DNA of 64,000 nt, from the NCBI GenBank assembly GCA_958296135.2, contig CATQHZ020000001.1, forward strand, positions 3,424,001 to 3,488,000, in the 5' to 3' direction. Under the pieces are notes generated by a model. That model had not been told where the DNA came from, ran no database searches, and was given only the letters and a program-made list of their open reading frames with translations. The position numbers and the translations under genes are program-made. Source of the stretch: an uncultured Poribacteria bacterium (GTDB lineage Bacteria; Poribacteria; WGA-4E; WGA-3G). This document shows positions 26,727 through 48,479 of the stretch, piece after piece. Numbering within the stretch: the first letter of the stretch is position 1; the number at the start of each line of letters is the position of its first letter.

Positions 26727-28894
26727 TTCTCTTCCTCCATTTTCGGGTGGAGTCTGAAATGCGCACCCTTTTCAGATTCCAAGACTTTCAGTTTAAGCCC
26801 GTTTCGTTCCGCGGCTTCACCAGCTATCGCCAATCCCAAACCCGTTCCGTCTGGTTTAGTAGAAAAATGGGGCTCAAAGATTACTTCACTTTCAATGTGA
26901 TTTGGTTCAATTCCTGGGCCGGTGTCGCGATAGTCAATATGAATCAAGGAATCTCCTACCGTCAAGAGTTCAATGCGGATTTTCCTCTTGGGCACATTTT
27001 TCTCACGCATCCAATAAAGGCTATTATCAACAAGATTCGTGAAAATCGCATAGATATCCTGATGCCACGCGGAAAATCTAAAACCGCAAGGATCTATAAC
27101 CTCAGCAGATACATTGTGAGTCTCCATTTCGTTTTCAAAAACGGAAAGCGTGCCCTCTATCGTTTTCTTCAAATCCAACAGCTTCTTGGTGGTGCGTTTT
27201 TTCGCGGCTAGCGGGTCAAGTCTGCGGAAGAGCTCTACGAAGAGCACCGCATTCTGCCATAAGCCATCGGTAATTGAAAGAATTTCTCCAAGATTCGCCG
27301 GATCCTCGGTTTCCAAGAATATTTCAGACCAGTACTTAAGGTTCGGTATCTGGTTGCGGAAGTATCCAAGTGGGTGCCTGCCTTCATGAAGAATAACATT
27401 GATGATTTTCCCGAGGGTGGCCTGCCCTTGATAAATAGCAACAGCTTTGCGGATTTCATCAGCAGCCTTGTTTTTATCTTCCTCGTCTTGATCGATAATG
27501 TCAATAATTTTGTCAGCGGTTATTTTGTCGACCGAGCCCTTGGCGAGCTGCATACGGACGCTCCGTTTCATCTCTTCAAACGAAAAAAGCTGTTGCAGAT
27601 CTCGCTCCACTTTGATAGCAGGACGGCTCAAGCCGGCCTTTTTTCTATAATCAAAACGCCGCCATTCAAGTTCTGTTATGACTTCTGTTGTGACTTCTTT
27701 CAGCCGATCGTAAGCCGGATTTTCCTTGAGTCCGTCCCGAGCACTCTTCTCGATTAAACCAGATTGATTTTCCGGCTCAATACCCACAAACCCAATCACT
27801 TGGTTGCTGCTGATGCGCTGTGTAGGATTATTGACACGTCGGCTATCCAATTTCATCCAATCAAAGCCAGCATCCCCTAGCGGTCTAATACGGAATCCGT
27901 TCCGATAAACACCGACACCGTTGTAGGCATTCAGAGACTGCCTGGCCTGGAGTTTTCCGACATAGTTACCGGATTCATCCTTGAGACCCCGCCGGATTAG
28001 GGACTCAATGGCCTCCTTTTCACGATCGTAGACTCGGATATCAATGTCAAGTTCACCACAGCCTGTTGGGGCCGTAGTGAACTTAATCTTTTCTTCCGGT
28101 ATGTTGCGAGCTTTCTGTGAGGAATAAGTCAGCGTGCCTTTACCGTCAGCATTGATGTGCCCGGAGATTTTGTAGTCAAAGAAATCGAAAAGCGGATAGG
28201 GCTCAATAGTTTCCTCAATGTTCTTCGCATCCGGAAAGCCATCAACCGTTAAATTGATACGGAATTCGTCACCGCCGTGTCTATTGCTGAGAGAAGAAAT
28301 CGCCGGTGACTTCAGTTTCTTCAATTCTAACTGAAGTTTTTTGAAGCGTTCCTGATTCCATTCAGCAAGAAGTTCACTACCTCCGTGTATCGTGAGCCGC
28401 GTTCCCTGCATTTCAGAGACATTCTCTGTTTCAACGAGAATTTCCACATCATCCAGATACTGCGCAGACTCAAAACTACTCCACTCAAGATAGAGCGTTG
28501 TTTTCTCTCCTTCAGGAGTGACTGTTTCAAGAAGCAAATCTGTGCCGAGAACAGATGCGGCATAGCGACCTACACCTTTACTTCCCTGCAATTTTCTTCC
28601 CAGAGGACTTCTAACCCTTTCACGCTTGTCTAAGGTCGATGGCACCATCCATTTGTTGATGACATCGTCCCTAGACATGCCATGTCCGTGATCGGAAATG
28701 ACGACAGTATAACCACTACCATCGGCAGAGGCTTTGAATGCTATGTCGACATCAGGAGAATCGGCATCATAAGCATTTTTCACCAACTCAACAACAGCCG
28801 CATAATTGTCTTGAATCAGATCGCGGCCGATAGTGAAAATGTGCCGTCCTGCAGGCCGAATGGTATAGGTTGTGTCAGGCTTCATGATTACCAA
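26723..28894 (-). CDS. MORC-like GHKL ATPase fused to a cytoplasmic histidine kinase
   Basis: N-terminal ELVKNAYDAD, DHGHGM, GSKGVGR; C-terminal LHEGRHPL, NLVDNS, DTGPGI, FSTK, GTGLGL; no TM helix. Confidence 0.88.
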   Translation of the reverse strand: MVIMKPDTTYTIRPAGRHIFTIGRDLIQDNYAAVVELVKNAYDADSPDVDIAFKASADGSGYTVVISDHGHGMSRDDVINKWMVPSTLDKRERVRSPLGRKLQGSKGVGRYAASVLGTDLLLETVTPEGEKTTLYLEWSSFESAQYLDDVEILVETENVSEMQGTRLTIHGGSELLAEWNQERFKKLQLELKKLKSPAISSLSNRHGGDEFRINLTVDGFPDAKNIEETIEPYPLFDFFDYKISGHINADGKGTLTYSSQKARNIPEEKIKFTTAPTGCGELDIDIRVYDREKEAIESLIRRGLKDESGNYVGKLQARQSLNAYNGVGVYRNGFRIRPLGDAGFDWMKLDSRRVNNPTQRISSNQVIGFVGIEPENQSGLIEKSARDGLKENPAYDRLKEVTTEVITELEWRRFDYRKKAGLSRPAIKVERDLQQLFSFEEMKRSVRMQLAKGSVDKITADKIIDIIDQDEEDKNKAADEIRKAVAIYQGQATLGKIINVILHEGRHPLGYFRNQIPNLKYWSEIFLETEDPANLGEILSITDGLWQNAVLFVELFRRLDPLAAKKRTTKKLLDLKKTIEGTLSVFENEMETHNVSAEVIDPCGFRFSAWHQDIYAIFTNLVDNSLYWMREKNVPKRKIRIELLTVGDSLIHIDYRDTGPGIEPNHIESEVIFEPHFSTKPDGTGLGLAIAGEAAERNGLKLKVLESEKGAHFRLHPKMEEEK

Positions 28895-30147
28895 TTCTCC
28901 CGCAATTTTTCCGCGATTTTTTGGGCAAGAATCACGGGAACTGCATTCCCAATTTGACGGTAAGCCGGTGTCCGATAAGGTTTGCCACTCTCGCTCTCGA
29001 AGTAATAGTCATCAGGAAATGTCTGCAGCCTCGCCGCTTCCCTCGGAGTGAGAGAACGATTCTGCTTAATATCCGGATGAATATAATAGTGGCCATCCAT
29101 CGCAATATGGGCGACGACGGTATGCGAGAACGGCAAATCTCCAGCGACAACCTTGAATCGGTTCACGAACGTTTCTCGGTTACGATGCGTTTTCAGTTCG
29201 TCAGGAAGATCGGTATATTTAAGGCGAACCTGTCCATCTTCCCAAAGGGTTACCGCTCTTCTATAAATCTCAAGATCGCGTTCGTTGTTGTAACGCGCCT
29301 GATGCAATGTCACCGGAAGTCCATCGTTTCGTATCCCTGCACCATATAACCATGCACTCTCACATGAATTCAGATCGCAAGGTCCTGCATCCCCTTCGCC
29401 GGCTTTGATAGGCGGCAAGTCCGAGAGAATGTCTTTCACGAAAATCTCTGGCGGACACATCTGTGGCTCTGGGTAGAAGCCACTTGATGTTCCTTTCTTG
29501 CCTACAAGAATAACTCTTTTTCGGCTTTGAGGCACCCCATAATCGTTCGCGGATAGCACCTTGCATTCGGTTTCATAACCTGCATCGCGGAATACAGATT
29601 GCATGCGGGATAAATAGGAATTCCCCTCTTCATCCTTGGCAGAACAAAGGCCCGGCACATTCTCAAACACGAAATACGCAGGCTCGTATCTTTTCAAGAA
29701 CTCAGCATAGAAAAGATATAGAGTATTCCGCTTATCTCCTTTCATCCGGTTCTGAGAACGCGCGCGGCCGATAACCGAATAGGTTTGACAAGGCGGCCCT
29801 CCAATAATCAGATCGAGTCTTTCGCCACCGAGTCGTTTATCAATTTGACAGAAAATATCCGTGAGGGTCGCCTCAGCAATTTCGTCGTTGATAACCGATT
29901 GGATGAGCTCTTCCGGAACCCGACTGTATAATTCAGAGCGACTCATCCGGTCTTCCAGATAAGCGGCATAGTGCTCTTCTTGACCTTCTCTCCTCAGCCA
30001 ATGATATGCCATCCGGGTACGGAGCGTAAAGCAAGCAGCCGCATCCATCTCCACATGCGCGATAGGGTGAAATCCGGCACGAATGAATCCTTCAGAAAGC
30101 CCGCCAGCACCGGCGAAAAGATCCAGAAAACTCAGTTCGCTGCTCAT
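28888..30147 (-). CDS. DNA (cytosine-5) methyltransferase
   Basis: DLFAGAGG, GGPPCQ, FENV, QSRKR, REAARLQTFPD, QIGNAV. Confidence 0.96.
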   Translation of the reverse strand: MSSELSFLDLFAGAGGLSEGFIRAGFHPIAHVEMDAAACFTLRTRMAYHWLRREGQEEHYAAYLEDRMSRSELYSRVPEELIQSVINDEIAEATLTDIFCQIDKRLGGERLDLIIGGPPCQTYSVIGRARSQNRMKGDKRNTLYLFYAEFLKRYEPAYFVFENVPGLCSAKDEEGNSYLSRMQSVFRDAGYETECKVLSANDYGVPQSRKRVILVGKKGTSSGFYPEPQMCPPEIFVKDILSDLPPIKAGEGDAGPCDLNSCESAWLYGAGIRNDGLPVTLHQARYNNERDLEIYRRAVTLWEDGQVRLKYTDLPDELKTHRNRETFVNRFKVVAGDLPFSHTVVAHIAMDGHYYIHPDIKQNRSLTPREAARLQTFPDDYYFESESGKPYRTPAYRQIGNAVPVILAQKIAEKLRENW

Positions 30148-33776: not shown

Positions 33777-35222
33777 CTAGAAAATCCCGGCAATCGGTTC
33801 GCCTTTCACCAATTCGCGCGGCTGCTCCAAGTGGTTCAACACGATAGTGTGCGGGTCGATGCCGAGCGTATGGTAGACCGTGGCGAGAATGTCGCGCGGA
33901 TGCACCGGATTCTCAAGCGGCGTTGAGCCCGTCGCATCGGACTTCCCATAAACCTGTCCACCTTTCACACCCGCGCCTGCAATCAGACCGGTGTAGCAAT
34001 ACGGCCAATGATCTCTGCCATCAGGCGCGTTGCTATTCCCAGAAGTGCTGATGCCCATCCGCGGGGAACGGCCGAACTCGCCGATAGCCAAAACCAACGT
34101 ATCGTCTAACATGCCGCGCTGGTGCAGGTCCTCGAGCAGCGAGGAGACCGCGCTATCCAGCTTCGGGCAGTGCAGATTCTTCAGCGGACCGAAGTTCGTC
34201 GCATGCGTATCCCAGGCTGTCGTGTTCGGATCGCCGTTAGCAACGGAGGGCCAGTTCACCTGCACGAAGCGAGTACCTGCCTCCACCAACCGCCGCGCGA
34301 GGAGCGCGCTCTGTCCAAACGTATGCCGGCCATACTTATCGCGCACCTCATCAGGTTCCTGCGCCAAGTCAAACGCATTACGCGCCCGCTGCGACAAGAT
34401 GAGATTGTAAGCCTTCTCATAATACTCGTTCAAGGCATAGGAATCCGCAACCTTGTCGATTTCAGGCATGCCGGCGTTAAGCGTCTCCAGCAGAGATTTC
34501 CGCCGTTTCAACCGCACAGGCGGCACCTCGGGACGCAGCGTCAGATCGTCCAGGTTAATGTCCTCATTCGGATCTTGGAAGAGGAAGTAAGGATCGTAGG
34601 CTCTACCGAGGAACCCCGCGTTCCCACCCTTGCCGATGATGTTGCTCTCCTGCATCGGACGTGGAAGCTGCACGGCTGCCAGCATCGGTTCATCCGGCGG
34701 ACGGTAGTTCGCGATGTGCGCCGCCGCATTCGGATGGTCTGCAGGAGAAGGCGGATCCAACTGTCCCGAAGGCGCAACTTTATCCGGCGTTTCGCCTGTC
34801 ACCATTTGATACATCGCCGCCGTGTGGTTGAAAAGCCCCGCCGGTGTGTAACTCACCGACCGGATGAGGCACGCCTTATCCATCTGCTGTGCCAAGCGCG
34901 GCATCGTCTCGGATAACTGAATGCCGTCCACGTTCGTCGGAATCGGATTGAATTCGCCCCGGATGTTTGAGGGCGCGTCCGGCTTCGGATCCCAGATATC
35001 AAGATGGCTGGGGCCCCCTTGCAAAAAGAGGAGAATGACAGAATTGGCTTTCCCCCACCCGTTGAGAGGCTTGGAGGGCTCAACTGCCGTATTCGCTCTG
35101 GCTTGGAGTGACAGGACTTGCGGCAGACTGATGCCGAGCATCGCTGCGCCCCCGACGCGTAGAAATTCGCGTCGCGAAAATCCGTCACACAATCTTCCTG
35201 GCATTTGTGGTAACGATAACAT
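33777..35222 (-). CDS. DUF1501 family protein
   Basis: SRREFLR, LQGGPSHLDIWDPKP, ARRLVEAG, WDTH, GEFGRSP, GRDHW. Confidence 0.93.
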   Translation of the reverse strand: MLSLPQMPGRLCDGFSRREFLRVGGAAMLGISLPQVLSLQARANTAVEPSKPLNGWGKANSVILLFLQGGPSHLDIWDPKPDAPSNIRGEFNPIPTNVDGIQLSETMPRLAQQMDKACLIRSVSYTPAGLFNHTAAMYQMVTGETPDKVAPSGQLDPPSPADHPNAAAHIANYRPPDEPMLAAVQLPRPMQESNIIGKGGNAGFLGRAYDPYFLFQDPNEDINLDDLTLRPEVPPVRLKRRKSLLETLNAGMPEIDKVADSYALNEYYEKAYNLILSQRARNAFDLAQEPDEVRDKYGRHTFGQSALLARRLVEAGTRFVQVNWPSVANGDPNTTAWDTHATNFGPLKNLHCPKLDSAVSSLLEDLHQRGMLDDTLVLAIGEFGRSPRMGISTSGNSNAPDGRDHWPYCYTGLIAGAGVKGGQVYGKSDATGSTPLENPVHPRDILATVYHTLGIDPHTIVLNHLEQPRELVKGEPIAGIF

Positions 35223-35321: not shown

Positions 35322-37796
35322 TTAACGATTAAACAGGAACGCCGGACTGTTAATCAGTGCCCACAACAGATCTTGCGCTCCCTCTTCCTTAGACTCGGCG
35401 TTTGCGAGATGCTCAATCGCTACCGCGTATTCGGCCTTCTGCGGTAACCGAGAAAGCGTGGCAAGATACAACTCCTCAACGAGGGTTTTGTCGTCACTCT
35501 CTGCTTTCACGAGTCTCGCGATGCGTCCCTCCGGATCGATTAGCGCGTCTGCAACCGTCGGGCCGTTAATCAAGTTCATAGCGTGCGCGAGGCTGACCTC
35601 GGTGGTGCGTTCGCATTCACACGAAGTCTCGCGTTCCGGACGCCCGAAGAGTTTCAAGAAACCGTCGTCCTTCACCTTGCTATCAGGCAATTGGACAGCT
35701 CTGAAGTCTTTCGGCACCGCTTCAAACCTTGGACGGCTCCCTGTTGCCACGCCGATGGAATCAAGCAACTGTTCCGCTGTCAAACGCCGCGCAACCGCGT
35801 GGGAGAAGTTAATCTTATCCGCTTTGTTCCACTTATTCGTCTTGATACTCTGCTGATAGGTTCGGGAGCGCGCGATCGTCCGCATGATATGCTTCAAATC
35901 GAAGCCGCTCTCTACAAAATCCTTTGTCAACGCATCAAGCAGTTCCGGATTCGTCGGCGGGTTACTTGTGCGAATGTCGTCCACAGGCTCAATGATCCCG
36001 CGTCCCATGAAGTAACTCCACAGACGATTCACGCCTGCGCGAGCGAACATCGGATTGTCAGCGGCGGTAAGCCACTCCGCGAGAGCCTGCCGCTTATCGG
36101 CCGTGTCTGCATCCACTTCACCAAACGGGACAGCAGGTTCAATCACTGCCAACGTTCGGGGATGTTTCACAGGCGTTTCGGTATAATTGGCGTAGACTAC
36201 CTCATCACCGGGCAGATGCCCCTGCTTGACTTTGACATCCGCAAAGAACGCGCCGAACTCATAATACTGGTTCTGCGTCCACTTTTCAAACGGATGGTCA
36301 TGGCATTTATTACAGGAGAAGCGCACACCCAAAAAGAGCTGCGTCGTGTTTTCCACGGCATCGGTATACTCACGTGACACGCGGAAATAACTGGCCGCCG
36401 GATTGCTATAGGCACTGCCACTAGACGTAATCAGGGCGCGGACGAACTGATCATACGGCTGATTCTGCGCGATGGACTCATGAATCCACTGCTGGAAAAG
36501 CCACACGCCGCGCTCGCCGAGGAACTTCCGGTTTGATTGCAACAAGTCTGCCCATTTATGTGTCCAATGATCGACAAACTCCGGTGTCTCCACGAGTGCA
36601 TCGATTAACTGCTCGCGCTTCGCCTTTGAAGCGGTTTTATCTGCCAAGAAGCTCCGAACCTGCTCAGGCATGGGCGGCAGTCCCGTCAAATCGAGATAAA
36701 TGCGCCGCACAAACTCCTCATCGGTGCAGAGAGCCGATGGCAGAATCTTCATCCGCTTCAACTTGTTATGCACATGCGTATCAATGTAGGTGTACGTCGG
36801 TGTTTTTACCCATTTATAGCCGGTTCTGTCACCCATAACGATGATGCCGTTGGTGCTGTACGCGCCTTCATACCGTGTCAATATGGCGGTTTCACCGCGT
36901 CGTTCAGCGGTGACAACCCCGTCATCCGTGACTTTCGCGACATCATTAGCACTGCTGGTGAACTTAGCCTCGCGGGTGACATCGCGCGTGGTACCATCGG
37001 GATAGTGCGCAATAACGATGAGTTGTTGCTTCGTGCCGGGCATCGACAACTCTGCAGAATTCGGCAGCACCTCTAACCGTTCCACGCGCTGCGTGGTTTT
37101 CACGTCAGAGACAACACCTTCCGCTATCCACTGCCGAATCAGCTCGTAGTCACGCGAACCAGGAACAATCACCTGCCCGCCTTTGTGCGGCACTTCGGAT
37201 GTCGGCTTCAGCAGCATCAGGCTCTGTTCGGGGAACGCGCGATTGAAACGCCGCCCCGATATATCCTCAATGAGGAGCTCGTAGTCAAAATCCGGGTCAT
37301 AGCCGCGCAGGGAGAGTTTAAACCCGTTTTTGCCCTTCGCCGCGCCGTGGCACGTGCCGTTGTTACACCCGGCGTGACTCAGAAGCGGCATGACCTCCCG
37401 CACGAAACTCACCGGCGGTGCCTCCAGGCTCGTGACGTTCACCGGTAAATCGGTGCTGAGCCCTTTGACAGTAACGGCGATGTTCGTCGTGCCGACAGAC
37501 ACCGGGTAGATATAGCCATCTTCCTGCACCTGCACGCCAGCAGAAGAAGGAGTTAGGACCGCCCAGTGCGTTACGTCGATCCAACGTCCATCCGTTGTCC
37601 GGCCTGACACGAGCACACGGCGGCCATCGCGCGCATGCTGCAGCGTCAATGCCTCAGGATGCACCTTCAACGCCGTAATTTTGGGGATTTCAACACTCGC
37701 AGCCTTCTCCATTTCGCTCCAACTCGTCAGTTGGAACGCGAAGCATAAGGAGAATGCGATGAGGAGTGTCGCGACAAACTTAAACCTAGGTTTCAT
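35322..37796 (-). CDS. DUF1549/DUF1553 protein with Ig-like domains
   Basis: CNNGTCHG, FVRRIYLDLTG, CNKCHDHPFEKW, NPELLDAL, RRLTAEQLLD, FLFNR; GGAGG RBS before ATG 37796. Confidence 0.92.
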   Translation of the reverse strand: MKPRFKFVATLLIAFSLCFAFQLTSWSEMEKAASVEIPKITALKVHPEALTLQHARDGRRVLVSGRTTDGRWIDVTHWAVLTPSSAGVQVQEDGYIYPVSVGTTNIAVTVKGLSTDLPVNVTSLEAPPVSFVREVMPLLSHAGCNNGTCHGAAKGKNGFKLSLRGYDPDFDYELLIEDISGRRFNRAFPEQSLMLLKPTSEVPHKGGQVIVPGSRDYELIRQWIAEGVVSDVKTTQRVERLEVLPNSAELSMPGTKQQLIVIAHYPDGTTRDVTREAKFTSSANDVAKVTDDGVVTAERRGETAILTRYEGAYSTNGIIVMGDRTGYKWVKTPTYTYIDTHVHNKLKRMKILPSALCTDEEFVRRIYLDLTGLPPMPEQVRSFLADKTASKAKREQLIDALVETPEFVDHWTHKWADLLQSNRKFLGERGVWLFQQWIHESIAQNQPYDQFVRALITSSGSAYSNPAASYFRVSREYTDAVENTTQLFLGVRFSCNKCHDHPFEKWTQNQYYEFGAFFADVKVKQGHLPGDEVVYANYTETPVKHPRTLAVIEPAVPFGEVDADTADKRQALAEWLTAADNPMFARAGVNRLWSYFMGRGIIEPVDDIRTSNPPTNPELLDALTKDFVESGFDLKHIMRTIARSRTYQQSIKTNKWNKADKINFSHAVARRLTAEQLLDSIGVATGSRPRFEAVPKDFRAVQLPDSKVKDDGFLKLFGRPERETSCECERTTEVSLAHAMNLINGPTVADALIDPEGRIARLVKAESDDKTLVEELYLATLSRLPQKAEYAVAIEHLANAESKEEGAQDLLWALINSPAFLFNR

Positions 37797-37864
37797 GATA
37801 TCCTCCAAATAGGTGAGGCGGAACATGCCAGCGCGCATTGCGCTCCTACACGTCCCAGTCTCCC

Positions 37865-38944: not shown

Positions 38945-39727
38945 CTACGGTGAATAATCCATGTCGCGCAGCCGTTCCCTCCCCATCTTCACAAAATTCG
39001 GCTCAATCTCAAAAGCGACGAAATTGCGACGGTGCCGCTTGCAGACGACAGGACACGTGCCTACGCCGGCAAACGGGTCCAACACCAAATCTCCCTGTGA
39101 TGAACTCGCTAACACCATCCGCTCAATTAACTTCTCAGGCTTCTGAATCGTATTGAGCACTTCTCGGCACGCCAACTCCTTCGATTTGTAAGTCAACTGC
39201 TTGATATCGCCCCAGACATCGCCCGGATTCTTCCCGTTGGCATTGAATTTGGTTTTCCCAAACGTGCCATCTGCGACAGAAGGAACCCGTTCGCACCGGA
39301 GCCGATGTGTTAATTCTACTAGCTGCGCCACCCTGATTTCATCAAGGTTATAGCATCGCGGGCGTTTGCCCTTGATGAAATAGCAGATGATGTCGTAGTT
39401 GTTCGTGTAGTTAATCCTGCCTTGCGCCAGCCGACTGGGTTGATACCAGATGATCTTCGCGCGCAGCGTTAAGAACTGCCGATAATCAATGAAGTCAACG
39501 CAGTCCGGTTTCCCGAAGAGATAGAGCGCACCGCCCTCTTTCAACTTCGGCGTGAAACGTTCAATGAGCCCGAGGTTGAACTCCTGAATTGAGGCGATTT
39601 TGTCCCACGAATGCTGCGTTACGCCGTAAGGACCGTCGCACACAATCAGAGATACCGATGCATCTTCCACCGATTCAAGGAGCTCAAACGCATCGCCGCA
39701 ATGGATAGTGTTGAGTTCAAGTGTCAT
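38945..39727 (-). CDS. Orphan beta-class N4/N6 DNA methyltransferase
   Basis: IHCGDA, VCDGPYG, NPGDVW, QKPEKL, DPFAGVG. Confidence 0.88.
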   Translation of the reverse strand: MTLELNTIHCGDAFELLESVEDASVSLIVCDGPYGVTQHSWDKIASIQEFNLGLIERFTPKLKEGGALYLFGKPDCVDFIDYRQFLTLRAKIIWYQPSRLAQGRINYTNNYDIICYFIKGKRPRCYNLDEIRVAQLVELTHRLRCERVPSVADGTFGKTKFNANGKNPGDVWGDIKQLTYKSKELACREVLNTIQKPEKLIERMVLASSSQGDLVLDPFAGVGTCPVVCKRHRRNFVAFEIEPNFVKMGRERLRDMDYSP

Positions 39728-41286: not shown

Positions 41287-41982
41287 CTATTCAAAAAACA
41301 GTGAGACCTCGCTGGAGAATCCCTCAACGACATCCTCGCCGGTGAGCGTATCGTCACGCTGGAGCAAAGTGATGTCTGTCTCTGAACGATACACCGTTAC
41401 CGTTTTCGCGGTAGGTTCAATAACCCAGACGAGGCGTGTGCCGGCTGCCAAGTAGTTGAACGCCTTTTCAACGATACGAGACAGCACATCTGATGGCGAA
41501 ACTACCTCTACCGCCAAGTCCGGCGGAATCGGTAACCCTTTCTTTTTGTCTCCCGTCAAGCGTTCCGTGGCAACAAATGCGACATCCGGCTTCGCGACCC
41601 GTTCACCGACTTGGAAGGTCGTATCCGCTGTATACACCTTGCCTAACCGATTTTCGCGAACGTGCAACCCTAACGGTAAAATGACGTTGACGCTAATTTC
41701 TCCGTGTTCCCTTGATGTACCGGGCATCAGCACTAATTCTCCTTTAACGTATTCATACCCCTCTACGTCGTTTTCAAGGAATTCCTCCAGCGTCATTTTG
41801 ATCTGCTCAGGCGGAACCCCTTCGTGCGCGAAGTGAGGCGGGATTGGATGCTTCGGTACCAATTTCCCCTCAACGTATTCATACCCCTCCACGTCGTTCT
41901 CAAGGAATTCCTCCAGCGTCATCGTGACATTTTCAGGCAGGGGTATTCCTTCCTCCGCGAGGCGGTGAATGTCAGTGTTCAT
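41287..41982 (-). CDS. Uma2 family PD-(D/E)XK nuclease-like protein with duplicated N-terminus
   Basis: KPDVAF, PDLAVEVVSPSD, VWVIEP; MTLEEFLENDVEGYEYV occurs twice. Confidence 0.9.
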   Translation of the reverse strand: MNTDIHRLAEEGIPLPENVTMTLEEFLENDVEGYEYVEGKLVPKHPIPPHFAHEGVPPEQIKMTLEEFLENDVEGYEYVKGELVLMPGTSREHGEISVNVILPLGLHVRENRLGKVYTADTTFQVGERVAKPDVAFVATERLTGDKKKGLPIPPDLAVEVVSPSDVLSRIVEKAFNYLAAGTRLVWVIEPTAKTVTVYRSETDITLLQRDDTLTGEDVVEGFSSEVSLFFE

Positions 41983-42048
41983 TTCTCATACCTCTCTATA
42001 AACCTGTCGTGCCTAACGGCACTATTATTCGGATATGGAACGCCTCAT

Positions 42049-43608
42049 TTACTTAGCGGTTGCGCTGAACCCTGTCGCCTTAACCACATCCGCCAAATCC
42101 GTGGCGGTGACAGCGTTCTTGCGCACCTTAATGACGGCCCGGTCTGGCAACGAAACTTCAACGCTGATAACGTCTTGGAGGTGTGTCAGTGCATCCTGCA
42201 CTTTCGCTACACACGCCCCTCACGTCATGCCGCTCACCGTTAAAACGACATCTTCGCTAGCGGAACCCTCTATCGGCACAGACATAAACGCCGCGATTAA
42301 TTTTGCAGCGCCCGGGTCGAAAATACGCACCTTGCCATCAAAACCGCCCGCGGCGAGTTGTGTGCCTGCCGGATGGAACGCCACGGCGAAAACGCCGACA
42401 GCATCACCGCGCATCGACGCGACGCGCGTGCCATCTGCCACGTTATAGACGCGCACTTCGCCCCCAGCATTGCCGGTAGCAAACAAACTCCCGTCTGCAG
42501 AAAACGCGACAGCCTCAATTGAACCAGATTGCGCCTCATAAGCCTTGATGAGGTTAAAGTCGGTGTTACCAACGTCCCGCCGGATTTCCCGGAAGATTTT
42601 GTAACGTCGTGGAATTCTGTCCTCGCCGCCGCTCAACACTTCGTCCGCCGAAGGATGCCGCGCGAGGGTATTTAGCTCGCCGTAACCCTTATTGCTGGAG
42701 TTGATGTCGTCAACGAAAGAACCGGTGTCTACCTCAACCAATTTGAGCGCGGTATCGCGCCCGCAACTCACAAAATGCGTGCCATCTGTCGAAAAAATTG
42801 TGCCGAAAACCCAGTCGCTGTGGTTATCAAATTTAACCAGCTCCTTCTCATCTGCAACAGAGAGCACGCGCACCGTCTTGTCGGAACACCCGAACGCGAC
42901 GCGACTCGCATCTGGTGAAAACGAAAGCCCATAAACTGTATCATAACTCGCACGAATCGACTTGACAAGCGTGTTCGTCGCCGTATCCCACAACTGCACC
43001 TCGCCGAATTGGGCCGGGGAGCCGCCGGCAACGCCCAAAAGGTTACCATCAACAGCATACGTGAGAGACTGAATGCGGCGCGCCTTGCCGACTAACCGCG
43101 CCTTCAATTCAAAATGCGTCGTGTCATACAACAGCACCTCGCGGACACCCGACACTGCCAACGTGCCGCCATCGGGCGAATACGCCAGCGCGGAAACGAC
43201 AGGCGGCACCGTGTAAACCGGATAATCTCCCTCGCCTAAATCGTCAACTTCCATCGGGGTATCGTCTTGCGCACCTGCCAGAATCCACTGCCGGAAGAGT
43301 GCCACTTCTTCCGCAGACAGCGGTTCTTGATTCTGTGGCATCGCAGGCTCATCGCCGGAAATCAGCTTGATGATGAGACTTACATCTGGCTTGCCGGGTA
43401 TGATTGCCTCGCCTGCCATGCCGCCGCGCGTGAGCTCGGCGTAGGTTGTCACAATCAAACCGCCGTTCGGATCGCCGGGATGGTGGCACCCTTGGCAACT
43501 CCGCTTGAGAATCGGGACAATCTGTGCGTGATAACTTACGTCTGCCCTAACTGACATCGCGATGAGACAGACGCAGCACACTAAAATCCCTACGCGCCAT
43601 ACCTTCAT
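42049..43608 (-). CDS. Planctomycete cytochrome c + WD40 + HMA-domain protein, probable selenoprotein (UGA at 42220-42222)
   Basis: Signal peptide, CQGCH, WD40 repeats; the frame continues past TGA as VSGMT-U-GACVAKVQDAL...ATGFSATAK* completing an HMA domain. Confidence 0.85.
42181..42214 (-). promoter_or_regulatory. Bacterial SECIS-like hairpin
   Basis: GUGUGU-AGCGAA-AGUGCA-GGA-UGCACU-G-ACACAC begins 5 nt after the UGA. Confidence 0.75.
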
Positions 43609-43657
43609 ATTGCGTTCTTTCCTCCACTTGGATTAGATAGCATTTTCCATTACATTA

Positions 43658-43687
43658 ATTATACCACAATTTGATACATAATTGCAA
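43658..43687 (-). promoter_or_regulatory. Sigma70-like promoter of the WD40/HMA gene
   Basis: TTGCAA-N18-TATAAT with TGTGG extension. Confidence 0.6.
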
Positions 43688-43704: not shown

Positions 43705-44432
43705 GGGAAAACCTGTCCCTCGGTAGGAGAGACCTCCCGCGTCTCGATGTTCGGCACTTGTCCCCCGCGATCCCTCTCGATTGACCGCAGCATGGCGCAG
43801 CACAGGACCGCGCCCTACGGACTAAGGGCCCCTTCTACCGTAGCGCGGGGGCCTGTCCCCCGCGATCGTTCGATCCACACAAAAAACGCCCGAAGCCCCA
43901 GGACTTCGGCCATCTTCTCTGCAGATCGATGCATGGCGCGGCACAGGACCGCGCCCTACGGACTAAGGCCCCCTTCTACCGTAGCGCGGGGGCCTGTCCC
44001 CCGCGATCGTCCGAACCACACGAACCCCCCTCTCACCGTAGCGCGAGGGCCTGTCCCTCGCGATCTACCGACCTACACAAAAAACGCCCGAAGCCCCAGG
44101 ACTTCGGGCCTCTTCTCTGCAGATCGATGCATGGCGCGGCACAGGACCGCGCCCTACGGACTAAGGGCCCCTTTTAACCGAAGGGCCCTTTTCACCGTAG
44201 CGCGAGGGCCTGTCCCTCGCGATCGTTCGACCACACCAAAAACACCCGAAGCCCCGGGACTTCTCTGTAGGTCGATGCATGGCGCGGCACAGGACCGCGC
44301 CCTACGGTAGAAGGGGCCTTTTCACCGTCGCGCGAATGTCTATCCCTCGCGATCGCCCAACCCAAACGAAAACAGCCGCAGCCCCAAGGGACCACGGCCG
44401 TTTTCTACATGGCGAGGCACAGCCCCGCCCTA
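43705..44432. repeat. BIME-like mosaic of REP-like palindromes
   Basis: Alternating GCATGGCGCGGCACAGGACCGCGCCCTAC and GTAGCGCG(A/G)GGGCCTGTCCC(T/C)CGCGAT units with conserved linkers. Confidence 0.92.
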
Positions 44433-44435
44433 CAT

Positions 44436-47400
44436 CTATTTCGCCTGCTGCTTCACAGCACCGAACGTCGTCAGCATCCGATTGGCCGCAGAGACAGGCC
44501 CCCGCAACATCCGCGTCGCCAACGTCGCCGGCCGCCCATCAAACGCGACCTCCTCGATCTGATAGTAGTACTCAACACCCGGCTTCGCAGACGTATCCGT
44601 AAACGTATACGTCTGACGCTCACCCGTCGTGCCAGCACCCGCAATCAGCGCAGCATTCAGCAGCGTGAAACCACTGTCACGTTTTTCGCTGCGGCGCAAG
44701 TTGAAGCCAGCGTTGTCAACTTCAGACTCCGTCGTCCAGGTCACGACAACCGCACCGGCCTCCGTGCGAGACACGGTGAAACTTGACAACTCCACCGGCA
44801 AGGCACCGCCTTTCCGATACCCCGGCGTGCCGATATCCTCGGCATGCCCATAGTGGAGGGCTTCCACGGCGAGTCGCTTGAGGTTCGATGCCAGCGCCCA
44901 ACTCGCACGCTGCTTCCCTTTCAGTGCAACGCCGTTGTCGTAACGCCGAATCAGCGAGCTCCGAACACCTGCCTCGGCACTCACCGGCAACGCCCACGCC
45001 GGCGCATCCTTCGTCCGACGATTGCCATCGGTGTTGCCCACTTCGTCTATGAGGTTACCGTTGCTATCGGTAAGTTTCAGGTAGAAGCCTTCCGCGCTCA
45101 GGAACGTATCCCGCGCAGTCTTGATACGCAGATTCCTCGCATGCAATGCCAACAGGTTGTAAACCCGCTCCGCAGGAAATACCGTGCTTGACGATGCACG
45201 CGCAGGCCCCGCAACAATCAGCAGCGTCTGATTCGGTTGAATCACCTTCTCTTGCAACGTCAACGCCACAATCGGCCGCCCTACCAAGTCTTCCGAATCC
45301 ACATTCTGGAACTCCAGTTCCCACCGGTTCAGATTGAGTGCCTCGGTTTTGGATTTATTATACAGCTCTATCCACTGTGGCAGTGTGCCGCCACCCGAAT
45401 CAAACATCACTTCGCTGATGGTGATACTACCCTTCGGCGTAGCTGCTGCCGTTTTCACGGCACCATTCGGATACCCCGGTGTGCCTGCGGTGGCAGCAGA
45501 ATTCGCCACCTTCCTGTCATAGCCGATACCGGTGAACGCCGCTTCTGCCCAGGCATCTTTGTGGTAACCCACAATATCTGCCTTCGCGCGCTGCCACACC
45601 TTACCGGAGCCGAGGGCCCCTTCGGTATCACCACCGGGAGCTTCACGCACTTGCAACGGCCAGACGTATGTATCATAGTCACCCGTCTGCTCGCGAACGA
45701 ACGCATCCGTGTCACTGCCACCGCCACCGGCGACATCGACAAATGCCTCGTTCATACCGAGTTTCTCCTTCGCGTTCCGCAGAATCAACAGGAACTTCCC
45801 ATCGTCCGGCAACGCGAGCCCCGAGGCAACGAGATACTGATGCGGCGAACCTTTCTGCTCTACATCGGCCGTAGCGATATCATCGCCACCGGCGAGAGAC
45901 GTTTTCTCCGGCGAGGTACTCACCAGCAGCAACAGCCCATTCGCAGGCACGCTCACATCCGCGAAAACGTGGAGCGATGTATCTTCCTTTTGCCCATCGG
46001 CCACAACCGAGAGCTGATAGTCTTTCAAGGAGACAGCCGCGCCCGTGACATTCCGCAATTCCAGCCAGTCGTTTGCAGCACCGCTGCCATTGCCGAACTC
46101 GTTAAAAACAATCGGACTGCGAGGCACAGCAGACGCAGCAGCCTTCGGCGAAGTCTCCTCGGGGAAAAACGGCACAACCGGTATAACCGGTGTCTCCCGG
46201 ACGAGCTGCGGAATCTCACGTCCAGACGTATCTCGCAACGGCACCAGATCTGCAGGCGGCACCGAGGCCGGCGCAGCACCAGACGCAACAGCAGGAGCCG
46301 CTGTCCCAGACTGCTGCCCAGTCGGCGCACCTCGCGGCCCAGACAGCAATATCGTCCCTGCCGGCACCTGTGTCTGGACAGAGGGGACAGCCACCGACTC
46401 TACCACCGGATCCGTGGCTGCCACCGTATACGCGAAGGTGACTTTCGTCGAATTCGTGTCTTCCGCCGCCATCCAAACAGCATGCCGCGCATTGGCTAAC
46501 ACCTGTTCACCCAGATACAACACCACATACGGCGGGTTCGCCCCTTCATACCGCAGATGCTCCTGGGTATACGTCACCACCACTTCAATATTATCTCCGA
46601 GGGTATGGGCACCCGCGGGGGGCGCAACAATCTCCGGCGGTTCAACCACGCGCAACGGGGCAACCGGCACCGTTTGGACTACCGGCGGAACATCCGGGTC
46701 TAACGCCGGCACCGAGGCCGGCGCAGTGCCAGAACCCACCGCAGGCGCATCTGTCCCAGACTGCTGCCCATCAGCCGCACCTACCCCAAACAGCAATATT
46801 GTCCCTGCCGGCACCAGTATCTTGAAAGAGGGCACAGACACCGACTCTGCCACCGGATCCGTGGCTGCCAACGTATACGCGAAGGTCACCCGGGTCGAAG
46901 CCGCGTCTTCCGCCGCTGTCCAGACAGCATGCCGCGCATTTGCCGGCACCTGTTCGCCCAAATACAACACCACATACGGCGGGTTCGCCCCTTCATACCG
47001 CAGATGCTCCCAGACATACGTCCCCGCCACTTCAATATTATCTCCGACGGTATAGACACCGGCGGCGGGCGCAACAATCTCCGGCGTACCCACCACGCTA
47101 TCCACCGGCACCGTTAACGTATTCGATACCTTACTAAGGTTGCCCGCGATGTCCATTGTGGCACCGGCGGGAACCTGAATCGTCACATCGCCCTGAAACT
47201 CGCGGGCGGGCGTTATCCGCGCTTTGTAAACCAAGAATGATGCTGAATTCTTCGCATCACCGGGCGCATGCCCATCGGGAGGCGTCGTGTCACCATAATT
47301 CTGTGGTGCACGATGGTCGAGCCCGATGTAAACCGGGGTATCAATCGTCCAATCCAGCGAATTCCCAGCTGCATCGGTGATGACGATGTCTTCCGCGCCA

Positions 47401-48479
47401 AACGTCGTACCGATTTCCTCGGCGTTGGCACTCTTCGCTTTGTAATGGTTCGTAAAGCGGAATTCAACTTCAAACGCACCGCCCTGCGACACCGATTCCG
47501 TGACCCCTGCCATAAAATCTGTCACAGAGCCGGCACTGGGATCCAGGTTGACTATTGCGTTGCGTCGATCCTCGGTGTGCGTCCCCCCATTCTTTATCAA
47601 GCCAGGAATCCACACTGTCGCCGGGAAAGCATCCACAATGTGCTTGCCGACCCCGTAGGCGTATGCCTTAGCCCTGGTAACAGTATAGCCAGAATCAGCT
47701 TGTACCGGAGGACCGTACTCATAAGACACACCCCTCCAATCGGTGAGCGTAGGATCGTTAATCAGAAACGCCCGAAGCGGCGCTGAAACAAATTGACCAA
47801 AGTTATAATAAGTCCCTGTAGGAAACAAAAGGTCGGTGGAAGTAGTATAGTCTCTTATGTGCTTCGCACCTGATGGCAGAAGAGTGTTATGATCGGGATC
47901 AGCATGGGTATTATGCCACAGATTCTTGCCCACGAATTCGAGGTTATCGAGCTTGAGATCTTCCGCTCTCACGGTGTATCGAAAGGTGAGCGTTCTATCT
48001 CCGTCAGTCCTATCCGCATCGGTGAGTGTAAAATCCCAATCATTTGACACGAAATCGGGATGGCTACTGCTTTTGAAATTGGGCGGCCTCAGCGTCACAC
48101 CCTCATCGGCTGTGACAGGTTCCGCAAACGTCATCTGAATTTCAATGGTGTCGCCTACACCGTAATAGCCGACTTCCGGGCTGTTGGCCAAAGTCACCGC
48201 GTTCGGCCCGGTGGGAAGGGACCAGCCATGCGGGTGCACCAATGCGCATGCTGCCGTGTACGCGGCACCGTAGATGTTGTGATGTTCGAGACACTCTTGG
48301 CGCACCTTGTGATAGCGGGACTTGCCGGTATGGGGCGCGGTGCTAGAGTACTTCACCGGGAAAGTGTTTGCAGGTGCCAGTGCCGGCTGGGCACCTTGTG
48401 CGTCTATCGGTGTTCCGAGCATCGAAACTATCCCGATGCCAAACAGCAAACCTAAGAAAAAAATGGAATACTTTTTCAT
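44436..48479 (-). CDS. Large secreted protein with Ig-like and lamin-tail domains
   Basis: Signal peptide, IVFNEF..DWLEL and ITISEVM..QWIELYN (LTD), GTPGY, LPVELSSF, tail VSAANRMLTTFGAVK. Confidence 0.88.
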   Translation of the reverse strand: MKKYSIFFLGLLFGIGIVSMLGTPIDAQGAQPALAPANTFPVKYSSTAPHTGKSRYHKVRQECLEHHNIYGAAYTAACALVHPHGWSLPTGPNAVTLANSPEVGYYGVGDTIEIQMTFAEPVTADEGVTLRPPNFKSSSHPDFVSNDWDFTLTDADRTDGDRTLTFRYTVRAEDLKLDNLEFVGKNLWHNTHADPDHNTLLPSGAKHIRDYTTSTDLLFPTGTYYNFGQFVSAPLRAFLINDPTLTDWRGVSYEYGPPVQADSGYTVTRAKAYAYGVGKHIVDAFPATVWIPGLIKNGGTHTEDRRNAIVNLDPSAGSVTDFMAGVTESVSQGGAFEVEFRFTNHYKAKSANAEEIGTTFGAEDIVITDAAGNSLDWTIDTPVYIGLDHRAPQNYGDTTPPDGHAPGDAKNSASFLVYKARITPAREFQGDVTIQVPAGATMDIAGNLSKVSNTLTVPVDSVVGTPEIVAPAAGVYTVGDNIEVAGTYVWEHLRYEGANPPYVVLYLGEQVPANARHAVWTAAEDAASTRVTFAYTLAATDPVAESVSVPSFKILVPAGTILLFGVGAADGQQSGTDAPAVGSGTAPASVPALDPDVPPVVQTVPVAPLRVVEPPEIVAPPAGAHTLGDNIEVVVTYTQEHLRYEGANPPYVVLYLGEQVLANARHAVWMAAEDTNSTKVTFAYTVAATDPVVESVAVPSVQTQVPAGTILLSGPRGAPTGQQSGTAAPAVASGAAPASVPPADLVPLRDTSGREIPQLVRETPVIPVVPFFPEETSPKAAASAVPRSPIVFNEFGNGSGAANDWLELRNVTGAAVSLKDYQLSVVADGQKEDTSLHVFADVSVPANGLLLLVSTSPEKTSLAGGDDIATADVEQKGSPHQYLVASGLALPDDGKFLLILRNAKEKLGMNEAFVDVAGGGGSDTDAFVREQTGDYDTYVWPLQVREAPGGDTEGALGSGKVWQRAKADIVGYHKDAWAEAAFTGIGYDRKVANSAATAGTPGYPNGAVKTAAATPKGSITISEVMFDSGGGTLPQWIELYNKSKTEALNLNRWELEFQNVDSEDLVGRPIVALTLQEKVIQPNQTLLIVAGPARASSSTVFPAERVYNLLALHARNLRIKTARDTFLSAEGFYLKLTDSNGNLIDEVGNTDGNRRTKDAPAWALPVSAEAGVRSSLIRRYDNGVALKGKQRASWALASNLKRLAVEALHYGHAEDIGTPGYRKGGALPVELSSFTVSRTEAGAVVVTWTTESEVDNAGFNLRRSEKRDSGFTLLNAALIAGAGTTGERQTYTFTDTSAKPGVEYYYQIEEVAFDGRPATLATRMLRGPVSAANRMLTTFGAVKQQAK
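46250..47087. repeat. Intragenic duplication of a ~149-codon module
   Basis: PEIVAP..GDNIEV..EHLRYEGANPPYVVLYLGEQV.ANARHAVW occurs twice, about 447-450 bp apart, near-identical in DNA. Confidence 0.9.

Follow-up and report, generated by a model that had tools for sequence, protein, structure and literature searches.

We describe a gene in a stretch of 64,000 nucleotides (nt) of DNA from an uncultured Poribacteria bacterium (GenBank assembly GCA_958296135.2, contig CATQHZ020000001.1, positions 3,424,001 to 3,488,000 of the forward strand), hereafter the window. The gene lies on the minus strand at 43608..42049 and is very probably one intact gene for an exported selenoprotein of 519 residues, in which the UGA at codon 463 (42222..42220) is recoded to selenocysteine (Sec) by SelB and a selenocysteine insertion sequence (SECIS). 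The predicted product joins a cytochrome c domain, a WD40 beta-propeller and a heavy-metal-associated (HMA) domain, and the Sec would take the place of the first Cys of the HMA metal site. Comparison with orthologues indicates that this is a real and conserved selenoprotein gene, shortened by annotation, and that its decoding is of the ordinary bacterial kind.

The coding sequence begins with an ATG at 43608, 11 nt after a Shine-Dalgarno-like GGAGGA that was found by direct reading of the sequence (43620..43625, minus strand). A promoter-like site (TTGCAA, 18 nt, TG-TATAAT; 43658..43687, minus strand), picked up by a consensus scan with 10 of 12 matches and thus a candidate by pattern match only, is located about 50 nt 5' of the start codon. 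The N-terminal frame ends with VVLTVSGMT and is followed by the TGA; here the gene caller closes a product of 462 amino acids (aa), with its end at 42220. The same frame continues past the TGA as GACVAKVQDALTHLQDVISVEVSLPDRAVIKVRKNAVTATDLADVVKATGFSATAK, for 56 codons, up to a TAA stop at 42051..42049. An earlier note on this DNA had reported that the listed open reading frame (ORF) stopped at VVLTVSGMT with the frame running on beyond it, and translation with TGA read as U confirmed this, placing U at position 463 of 519. The junction reads VSGMTUGACVAK, and VQDALTHLQDVISVEVSLPDR is an example of a peptide found only in the read-through product. TGA is otherwise an ordinary stop codon in this genome, where 314 of the 1455 stop-to-stop frames with 400 or more codons close with it. 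All of the 120 best database homologues listed have 439-494 aa and cover 85-89% of the query, and so are cut near the same point; the close ones carry the name 'Candidatus Poribacteria'.

A six-frame search of 121 genomes of the phylum (E <= 1e-60) found the gene in 92 of them and not in the other 29. Exactly one in-frame TGA is present in 83 of the 92, with an alignment that reaches residue 517-519. Five genomes, all of genus g9 and about 60% identical, have no stop and align to residue 517-518, and the last four end at residue 450-455, just past the propeller and without the HMA domain. The TGA-bearing genomes belong to the window's family (81, the window's own genome included) and to another family (2); in one genome of the window's family, which is 95% complete, the gene was not matched. 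The DNA was read for all 83 TGA-bearing genes (41 genomes and 42 further ones). The TGA stands at the first-Cys column of the HMA motif in 83/83 orthologues, and the frame is continuous over it, with zero frameshifts, in every one of these genes. U463 and C466 are invariant among the orthologues. The same column holds TGT or TGC in 5/5 genus g9 genomes, giving GMTCGACV or GMSCGACV; the alignment of homologues proposed in the earlier note for this column therefore returned the pairing of TGA with Cys that is expected of a Sec codon. SelA was found in all 10 distant genomes tested, the five Cys-form ones included, which suggests that Cys in genus g9 is a substitution in a Sec-capable lineage and not the result of a loss of the machinery. 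The possibility that sequencing reads would show TGC or TGT at this codon was also considered: contigs of four runs have no other letter there, and as all come from one sample, possibly the source of the assembly, they are no independent support.

The region beyond the TGA evolves as protein. Using pairs with unsaturated synonymous divergence (dS), the ratio of nonsynonymous to synonymous divergence (dN/dS) is 0.06-0.19 for codons 464-519, against 0.04-0.08 for codons 22-462. Judged by these ratios the 56 codons past the TGA are under purifying selection, and the decay of the downstream frame that the earlier note had named as a possible outcome was not seen. Codons 464-469 are kept as protein with synonymous variation; C466 and V467, for instance, are invariant as residues and are written with 2 and 4 different codons, respectively.

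A small hairpin follows the UGA. The string GUGCAGGAUGCAC at 42201..42189 starts 18 nt past the UGA, or 21 nt counted from the T of the TGA, and folds into an apical SECIS-like hairpin A-GUGC-AGGAU-GCAC-U (42188..42202, minus strand) in codons K469-L474. A hairpin directly 3' of the UGA had been noticed earlier, and it could be located and followed through the orthologues: GUGC, the loop GG and G-C-R-C are retained in 83/83. The sequence GTGCAGGN(T/C)GCAC is kept in 41/41 Sec forms, and RNAalifold run on the Sec forms recovers the hairpin. Among 165 degenerate columns with an invariant residue in the whole gene, only V470 (GTG), Q471 (CAG) and A473 (GCA) use a single codon in 41/41. These three codons make up both arms of the hairpin and the first G of its loop, and the Val, Ala and Gln codons elsewhere in the gene vary freely. 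The same 13-mer is present in 39/42 of the further genomes. The three variants have GCA changed to GCG, CAG changed to CGG together with a change of the next codon from GAT to GTT (a variable loop position), or CAG changed to CTG, and all three keep the stem (one via a U-G wobble) and the loop GG. In 2/5 of the Cys forms a GTA is found and the hairpin is lost (-1.1 kcal/mol). These comparisons of codon use show selection on the hairpin at the RNA level. According to the earlier note, its apex may resemble that of the E. coli fdhF SECIS. As a separate observation, the assembly graph of all four runs breaks at 42173-42204 into a 32-nt piece of about four times the depth of its flanks, which comprises the SECIS hairpin and its 3' flank. 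An identical 32-mer occurs in at least one related genome (L009), so co-occurring relatives are the likely cause of the depth peak.

The machinery for Sec insertion is present. The genome (5.19 Mb in four contigs) was searched with profiles and contains selA (517.9 bits), selB, a 653-aa frame recognized by its wing domain (58.6 bits), and selD, which has one in-frame TGA read as KCAGUASKL, so that SelD itself would be a selenoprotein. A tRNA-SeC(tca) gene lies immediately beside the 3' end of selB. The tRNA-SeC/selB and selD sites are outside the window, at C1:2394171-2394450 and C1:2864299-2865270. All four genes, selA, selB, selC and selD, which the earlier note had listed for a search, were thus found. 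In a sponge metagenome, SelA and SelB co-occur in most symbiont bins, according to PMC5649159.

The same genome holds a second gene of this kind. The 13-mer of the hairpin occurs 6 times in the genome, and 4 of these occurrences are 18 nt past an in-frame TGA within G-M-T-U-x-x-C: one in the cytochrome/propeller gene and three in domains of a four-HMA protein. The latter is encoded on the plus strand at C1 ~3124043-3125165 (locus L057 2544..3665), outside the window and about 340 kb from the cytochrome/propeller gene, and combines a start like that of a signal peptide with four HMA domains in tandem. Three of them have UxxC, with the same GUGCAGGNUGCAC hairpin 18 nt past each TGA, and are 44-53% identical to the HMA domain of the cytochrome/propeller protein; one has CxxC. 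The Cys domain reads KVEAAL, versus KVQDAL/AVQGAL in the others, and is not among the 13-mer matches. The two proteins thus share G-M-T-U-x-x-C and an identical 13-nt hairpin at equal distance, whereas the four-HMA protein has neither cytochrome nor propeller. Two IS200/IS605-like (TnpB-type) ORFs, identified by sequence only, flank the four-HMA ORF.

Several domains were found in the 519-residue product. The N-terminus looks like a cleavable signal peptide, predicted by eye from sequence features for residues 1-22 (MKVWRVGILVCCVCLIAMSVRA, before DV; 43543..43608, minus strand). It is followed by PSCyt1, a planctomycete-type cytochrome c domain (PF07635, residues 38-91, 43336..43497, minus strand), with 35.8 bits against a cut-off of 22. 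Within PSCyt1 are the haem c motif C38-Q-G-C41-H42 (43497..43483, minus strand) and a likely axial Met90 (43341..43339, minus strand), and C38, C41, H42, M90 and P91 are invariant in 31/31 aligned orthologues. The cytochrome part is weakly similar to FoxE and cytochrome c6 (E = 0.006-0.2), and the genome has genes for cytochrome c assembly. The exported protein would carry one haem c. The WD40 propeller (PF00400, residues ~137-445, 42274..43200, minus strand) scored 100.4 bits against a cut-off of 27 (E = 3.6e-29). An AlphaFold2 (AF2) model of the protein has a mean predicted local distance difference test score (pLDDT) of 80 and a predicted template modelling score (pTM) of 0.72. It is confident for the propeller, with strands over 140-442, mostly of pLDDT >80, and has pLDDT <50 for residues 1-21. 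A Foldseek search of the whole model against the PDB returned only generic 7-bladed WD40 propellers (7bie, 5yzv), with a TM-score of 0.92 to 7bie (normalised by target length), which are uninformative on function. Judged by these best structural matches, the modelled propeller is seven-bladed. In the propeller-coding part, contigs of 2/4 runs of the same sample have an extra A behind 42884, which would shift the frame. As the window's version keeps the frame common to all orthologues, the extra A was put down to an error in the reads or the assembly, or to a minor variant.

The HMA domain (PF00403, residues 455-514, 42067..42246, minus strand), with the metal site G-M-T-U463-G-A-C466, has 38.8 bits against a cut-off of 24.8 when C stands in for U. 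Its placement by Pfam agrees with the earlier statement that the TGA occupies the position of the first Cys in the HMA motif GMTCxxC, and the Pfam matches to PSCyt1, WD40 and HMA likewise bear out the proposed fusion of haem c, beta-propeller and HMA parts in 519 aa, with export predicted from the sequence. AF2 gives the beta-alpha-beta-beta-alpha-beta order of an HMA fold (strand 451-459, helix 464-475, strands 480-486 and 490-496, helix 502-511, strand 515-518), with the metal loop between the first strand and the first helix and with block means of pLDDT of 86-94. Among solved structures, the domain is most closely related to the metal-binding domains of Cu-ATPases and to CopZ, and less closely to MerP. 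The best NCBIfam match of the C-terminal domain was NF041115, which has a cut-off of 95 bits; the domain scored 46.7 bits and the full-length protein 40.9. Scores for MerP (TIGR02052, 29.7 vs 92.55 bits) and CopZ (NF033794, 45.6 vs 95 bits; NF033795, 44.2 vs 91 bits) are also below the cut-offs, and the protein is not a member of any of these families. A search with residues 440-519 alone against 5.8 billion sequences gave 109 candidates, none at E <= 0.001, which is uninformative for a piece of 80 residues.

Some observations weigh against the interpretation as a selenoprotein with these properties. None of the public runs listed as containing this DNA is an RNA run, and expression of the gene and incorporation of Sec are predicted from sequence. 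The 83 TGA-bearing genomes are close kin, 81 of one family and 2 of another, so that few independent events stand behind them, and the five Cys forms, being all of one genus, represent one evolutionary event. With 5-6 bp the hairpin is short, and in folding energy it is unexceptional next to shuffled sequences, with z-scores of -1.3 (86 nt) and -1.7 (25 nt) and with 13/200 shuffles folding equally well. It is the comparative data, and not the folding energy, that place the hairpin beyond chance. In the orthologue alignment the apical stem has no compensatory covariation, which is uninformative because this stem never varies, and a permissive Rfam search of 42000-42400 returned nothing at E <= 10. 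A related stem can still form in three of the five Cys forms, with the loop AGAAC instead of AGGAU and without GG. The association of the hairpin with TGA is for this reason not clean, and its state in the Cys forms fits a decay after the change from Sec to Cys in one genus. In the cytochrome domain the AF2 model has low confidence, with pLDDT <50 at residues 38-53 and 87-94; since the model lacks the cofactor, a poor result at the haem site is expected. Finally, what is proposed below on metal specificity, on the haem and on a link with neighbouring genes comes from similarity and gene order. A possible lower stem around the apical hairpin (42177..42219, minus strand), seen in the window's own fold as GGGG.GUGUGU with ACACAC CUCC, is weak, may have no function and was dropped, as among orthologues it is only 78.8% paired, with no covariation beyond that of shuffles.

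Relatives without the HMA domain are informative on the history of the gene and on the fate of the 462-residue product. In a library clustered at 50% identity, the motif G-[ML]-x-C-x-x-C was found in 0/150 of the best 150 of 240,482 hits. Of twelve relatives of the cytochrome-WD40 type that were inspected, none has an HMA segment beyond the propeller; eleven stop soon past it, and one (P0138, 1246 aa) continues without the G-[ML]-x-C-x-x-C motif. With HMA-less relatives among the best 150 hits, it appears that the HMA(Sec) unit was added within this phylum, as a feature of the lineage, to an older and widespread short cytochrome c-WD40 protein. These relatives, together with the four orthologues that end past the propeller, are also the main argument for a dual output, in which the UGA would be both Sec codon and terminator, and 519- and 462-residue forms would be made in a ratio set by selenium. 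Such an output would extend the selenoprotein reading and not replace it. As there are natural orthologues without HMA, an HMA-less product would be a viable form of the protein, and SelB-dependent decoding competes with release factor 2. However, a protein that ends at the UGA would retain the first strand of the HMA domain (residues 451-462) as an unpaired tail that the natural short forms lack, and the strict conservation of UGA and hairpin speaks for selection on the long form only. We consider a regulated dual output possible but doubtful.

Other readings of the TGA survive less well. The UGA might be read through with an amino acid other than Sec, for example by a near-cognate Trp or Cys tRNA stimulated by the hairpin, since the sequence data reveal downstream translation and selection on the hairpin and not the residue inserted. 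This is very unlikely in view of the column itself, which is Cys in the TGA-free orthologues and part of a metal-binding CxxC, a classic Sec/Cys pairing. The genome also has a complete Sec machinery and a SelD that uses UGA. The position of the hairpin and its G-rich loop are as expected of a bacterial SECIS, for which PMC9312934 gives a general description.

A further alternative is that the TGA is a true stop and the HMA frame a separate small gene or a remnant of a gene fusion. All database entries listed end at about 462 residues, and an ORF of 50 aa starting with GTG at 42201 (42049..42201) does exist. However, this ORF lacks the metal-binding motif and strand 1 of the fold, and codons 464-469, between the TGA and the GTG, are conserved as protein. 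The frame is continuous in all 83 genes, the five Cys orthologues have one uninterrupted ORF, and the dN/dS past the TGA is low. A true stop is highly improbable and is already contradicted by these comparative data. A sequencing or assembly error, or a recent pseudogene in a single genome, has a negligible probability and is already refuted by the comparison of 83 independent genome assemblies with the same TGA; the 1-nt insertion behind 42884 in contigs of two runs indicates that the assemblies of the sample are not all identical, but the four runs agree on the codon.

Returning to the selenoprotein reading, the following mechanism is proposed. SelB carrying Sec-tRNA(Sec) would bind the hairpin (stem GUGC/GCAC, loop AGGAU with invariant GG), which starts 18 nt past the UGA and coincides with the K-V-Q-D-A-L codons of the first HMA helix, and would deliver Sec to the ribosome at the UGA. 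The product would consist of a signal peptide, a monohaem cytochrome c (CQGCH, Met90), the WD40 propeller and an HMA domain with Sec463-x-x-Cys466. The Sec-Cys pair may bind a soft metal, and the resemblance to Cu-ATPase and CopZ domains makes Cu(I) the best candidate. Alternatively, it may cycle as a selenenylsulfide, with the haem as electron partner. In the periplasm, the haem would pass electrons to or from the Sec-Cys site, and the selenoprotein may work with the neighbouring DUF1549/DUF1553 and DUF1501 proteins.

A broader and speculative view, to which we give little credit, is that HMA(Sec) is a self-contained movable cassette used at least twice in Poribacteria, in the four-HMA protein and in the cytochrome-propeller. 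As the hairpin is in the domain's own first-helix codons, a copy fused to any exported protein would still be decoded. Here the cassette would form part of a periplasmic haem-to-selenolate metal redox enzyme (acting, for example, on Cu(II)/Cu(I), a different soft metal or a metalloid) that serves DUF1549/DUF1553-DUF1501 systems, and selenium would switch between a long and a short form, the short one resembling the ancestral protein.

Similar proteins and sites are known in part. Sec-containing P-type ATPases with a UxxC motif are listed in PMC2398784 and PMC13188914, and two Sec forms of MerP are given among Global Ocean Sampling (GOS) sequences in the former. The latter, a 2026 review, includes several metal-related selenoprotein families, among them a UxxU metal-binding protein of the 'putative mercuric reductase' type (NF041115). 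The protein described here shares with the Sec P-type ATPases the UxxC motif and bacterial-type UGA/SECIS decoding, and Cu-ATPase domains are the closest solved relatives of its HMA domain. However, these ATPases are membrane pumps with the site on the cytoplasmic face, whereas here the site is at the C-terminus of a predicted exported cytochrome c/WD40 protein without an ATPase. The Sec of P-type ATPases is in their N-terminal HMA domain. NF041115 (UxxU_metal_bind) has the same HMA-like fold with selenium at the metal site, but with UxxU and a profile of 74 positions, compared with UxxC on a multidomain protein of 519 residues. HMA proteins of the MerP/CopZ/ATP7B type (1osd, 1afi, 1cpz, 2qif, 7xuk) share the fold and the GMTCxxC loop, and MerP is also periplasmic; they differ in that the first Cys is Sec here, the curated cut-offs are missed, and no mer or cop operon was found around the gene when neighbourhoods were compared.

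The E. coli fdhF system of SelB and SECIS has in common with the present one an in-frame UGA, a small hairpin within the coding sequence with a loop G, and the presence of selA, selB, selC and selD. It differs in that the hairpin here has no Rfam match, and binding of SelB to this hairpin would follow by analogy. In the case of the planctomycete-type families PSCyt1, DUF1549/DUF1553 and DUF1501 (PF07635, PF07583, PF07587, PF07394), PSCyt1 is above its cut-off and the company of genes is kept across the phylum, but the WD40 and HMA domains on PSCyt1 and the link to selenium are outside their description. A redox role has been suggested for these domains, as stated in PMC2754498.

The earlier note did not recognise the fusion as described. 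This stood in part. The cytochrome c/WD40/HMA selenoprotein was not found in the main texts of PMC13188914, PMC12013277 and PMC13326102 (supplements and BSepDB were not covered), and the main text of PMC13188914, as far as accessible, has no mention of WD40, propeller, planctomycete, Poribacteria or PF00403. A literature search with terms for selenoprotein and HMA or for Poribacteria returned nothing relevant. Sec at UxxC or UxxU of HMA domains is on the other hand already catalogued (PMC2398784 and PMC13188914; NF041115). Hence, on the evidence of sequence and the catalogues searched, what is new is the exported cytochrome-propeller setting, and UxxC Sec in HMA-type sites was known already.

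The genes downstream of the selenoprotein gene, on the same strand, are in order Uma2, sulfatase, DNA methylase, a 282-aa protein, DUF1549/DUF1553 and DUF1501. The DUF1549/DUF1553 gene (PSCyt2-PSD1; 838 aa, 37838..35322, minus strand) and its conserved partner, the DUF1501 gene (481 aa, 35222..33777, minus strand), were both assigned by Pfam. In L064-L067, four genomes of more distant relatives, they follow the orthologue directly on its downstream side; this set holds both Cys-form and HMA-less orthologues, and a DUF1549/DUF1553 homologue is nearby in two more (L062/L063). The Uma2-family gene directly downstream (41287-41982, minus strand) is present only in the window's genus among the genomes compared, and its N-terminus is internally duplicated, with 'MTLEEFLENDVEGYEYV.G.LV' twice. 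There are two DNA methylase genes, one of the N6/N4 type (38945-39727) and one of the C-5 type (28888-30147); the N6/N4-type gene is inserted between the sulfatase gene and the 282-aa gene of the conserved cluster. On the other side, the gap between the promoter region of the selenoprotein gene and a gene for a 1347-aa LTD-domain protein (44436..48479) is filled by five copies of a repeat of ~128 nt (43775-44389), 60-100% alike, together with inverted copies. The copies translate as '...ARGPVPRDR...' repeats.

Because the database entries listed stop at the UGA, public protein sets lack the HMA domain for no fewer than 83 species-level genomes, and surveys of selenium and metal use in bacteria of the sponge-symbiont type would consequently undercount. 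The hairpin would be a clean natural case in which a protein helix and an RNA signal constrain the same codons together. The protein would add an exported, haem-containing and multidomain member to the few selenoproteins in which selenium apparently serves to bind metal rather than in redox catalysis. Planctomycete-like bacteria have very large numbers of DUF1549/DUF1553 and DUF1501 proteins, families without a known function. A haem and a Sec-Cys site in a conserved partner of these proteins may provide a testable lead on their role, namely in periplasmic metal or redox chemistry.

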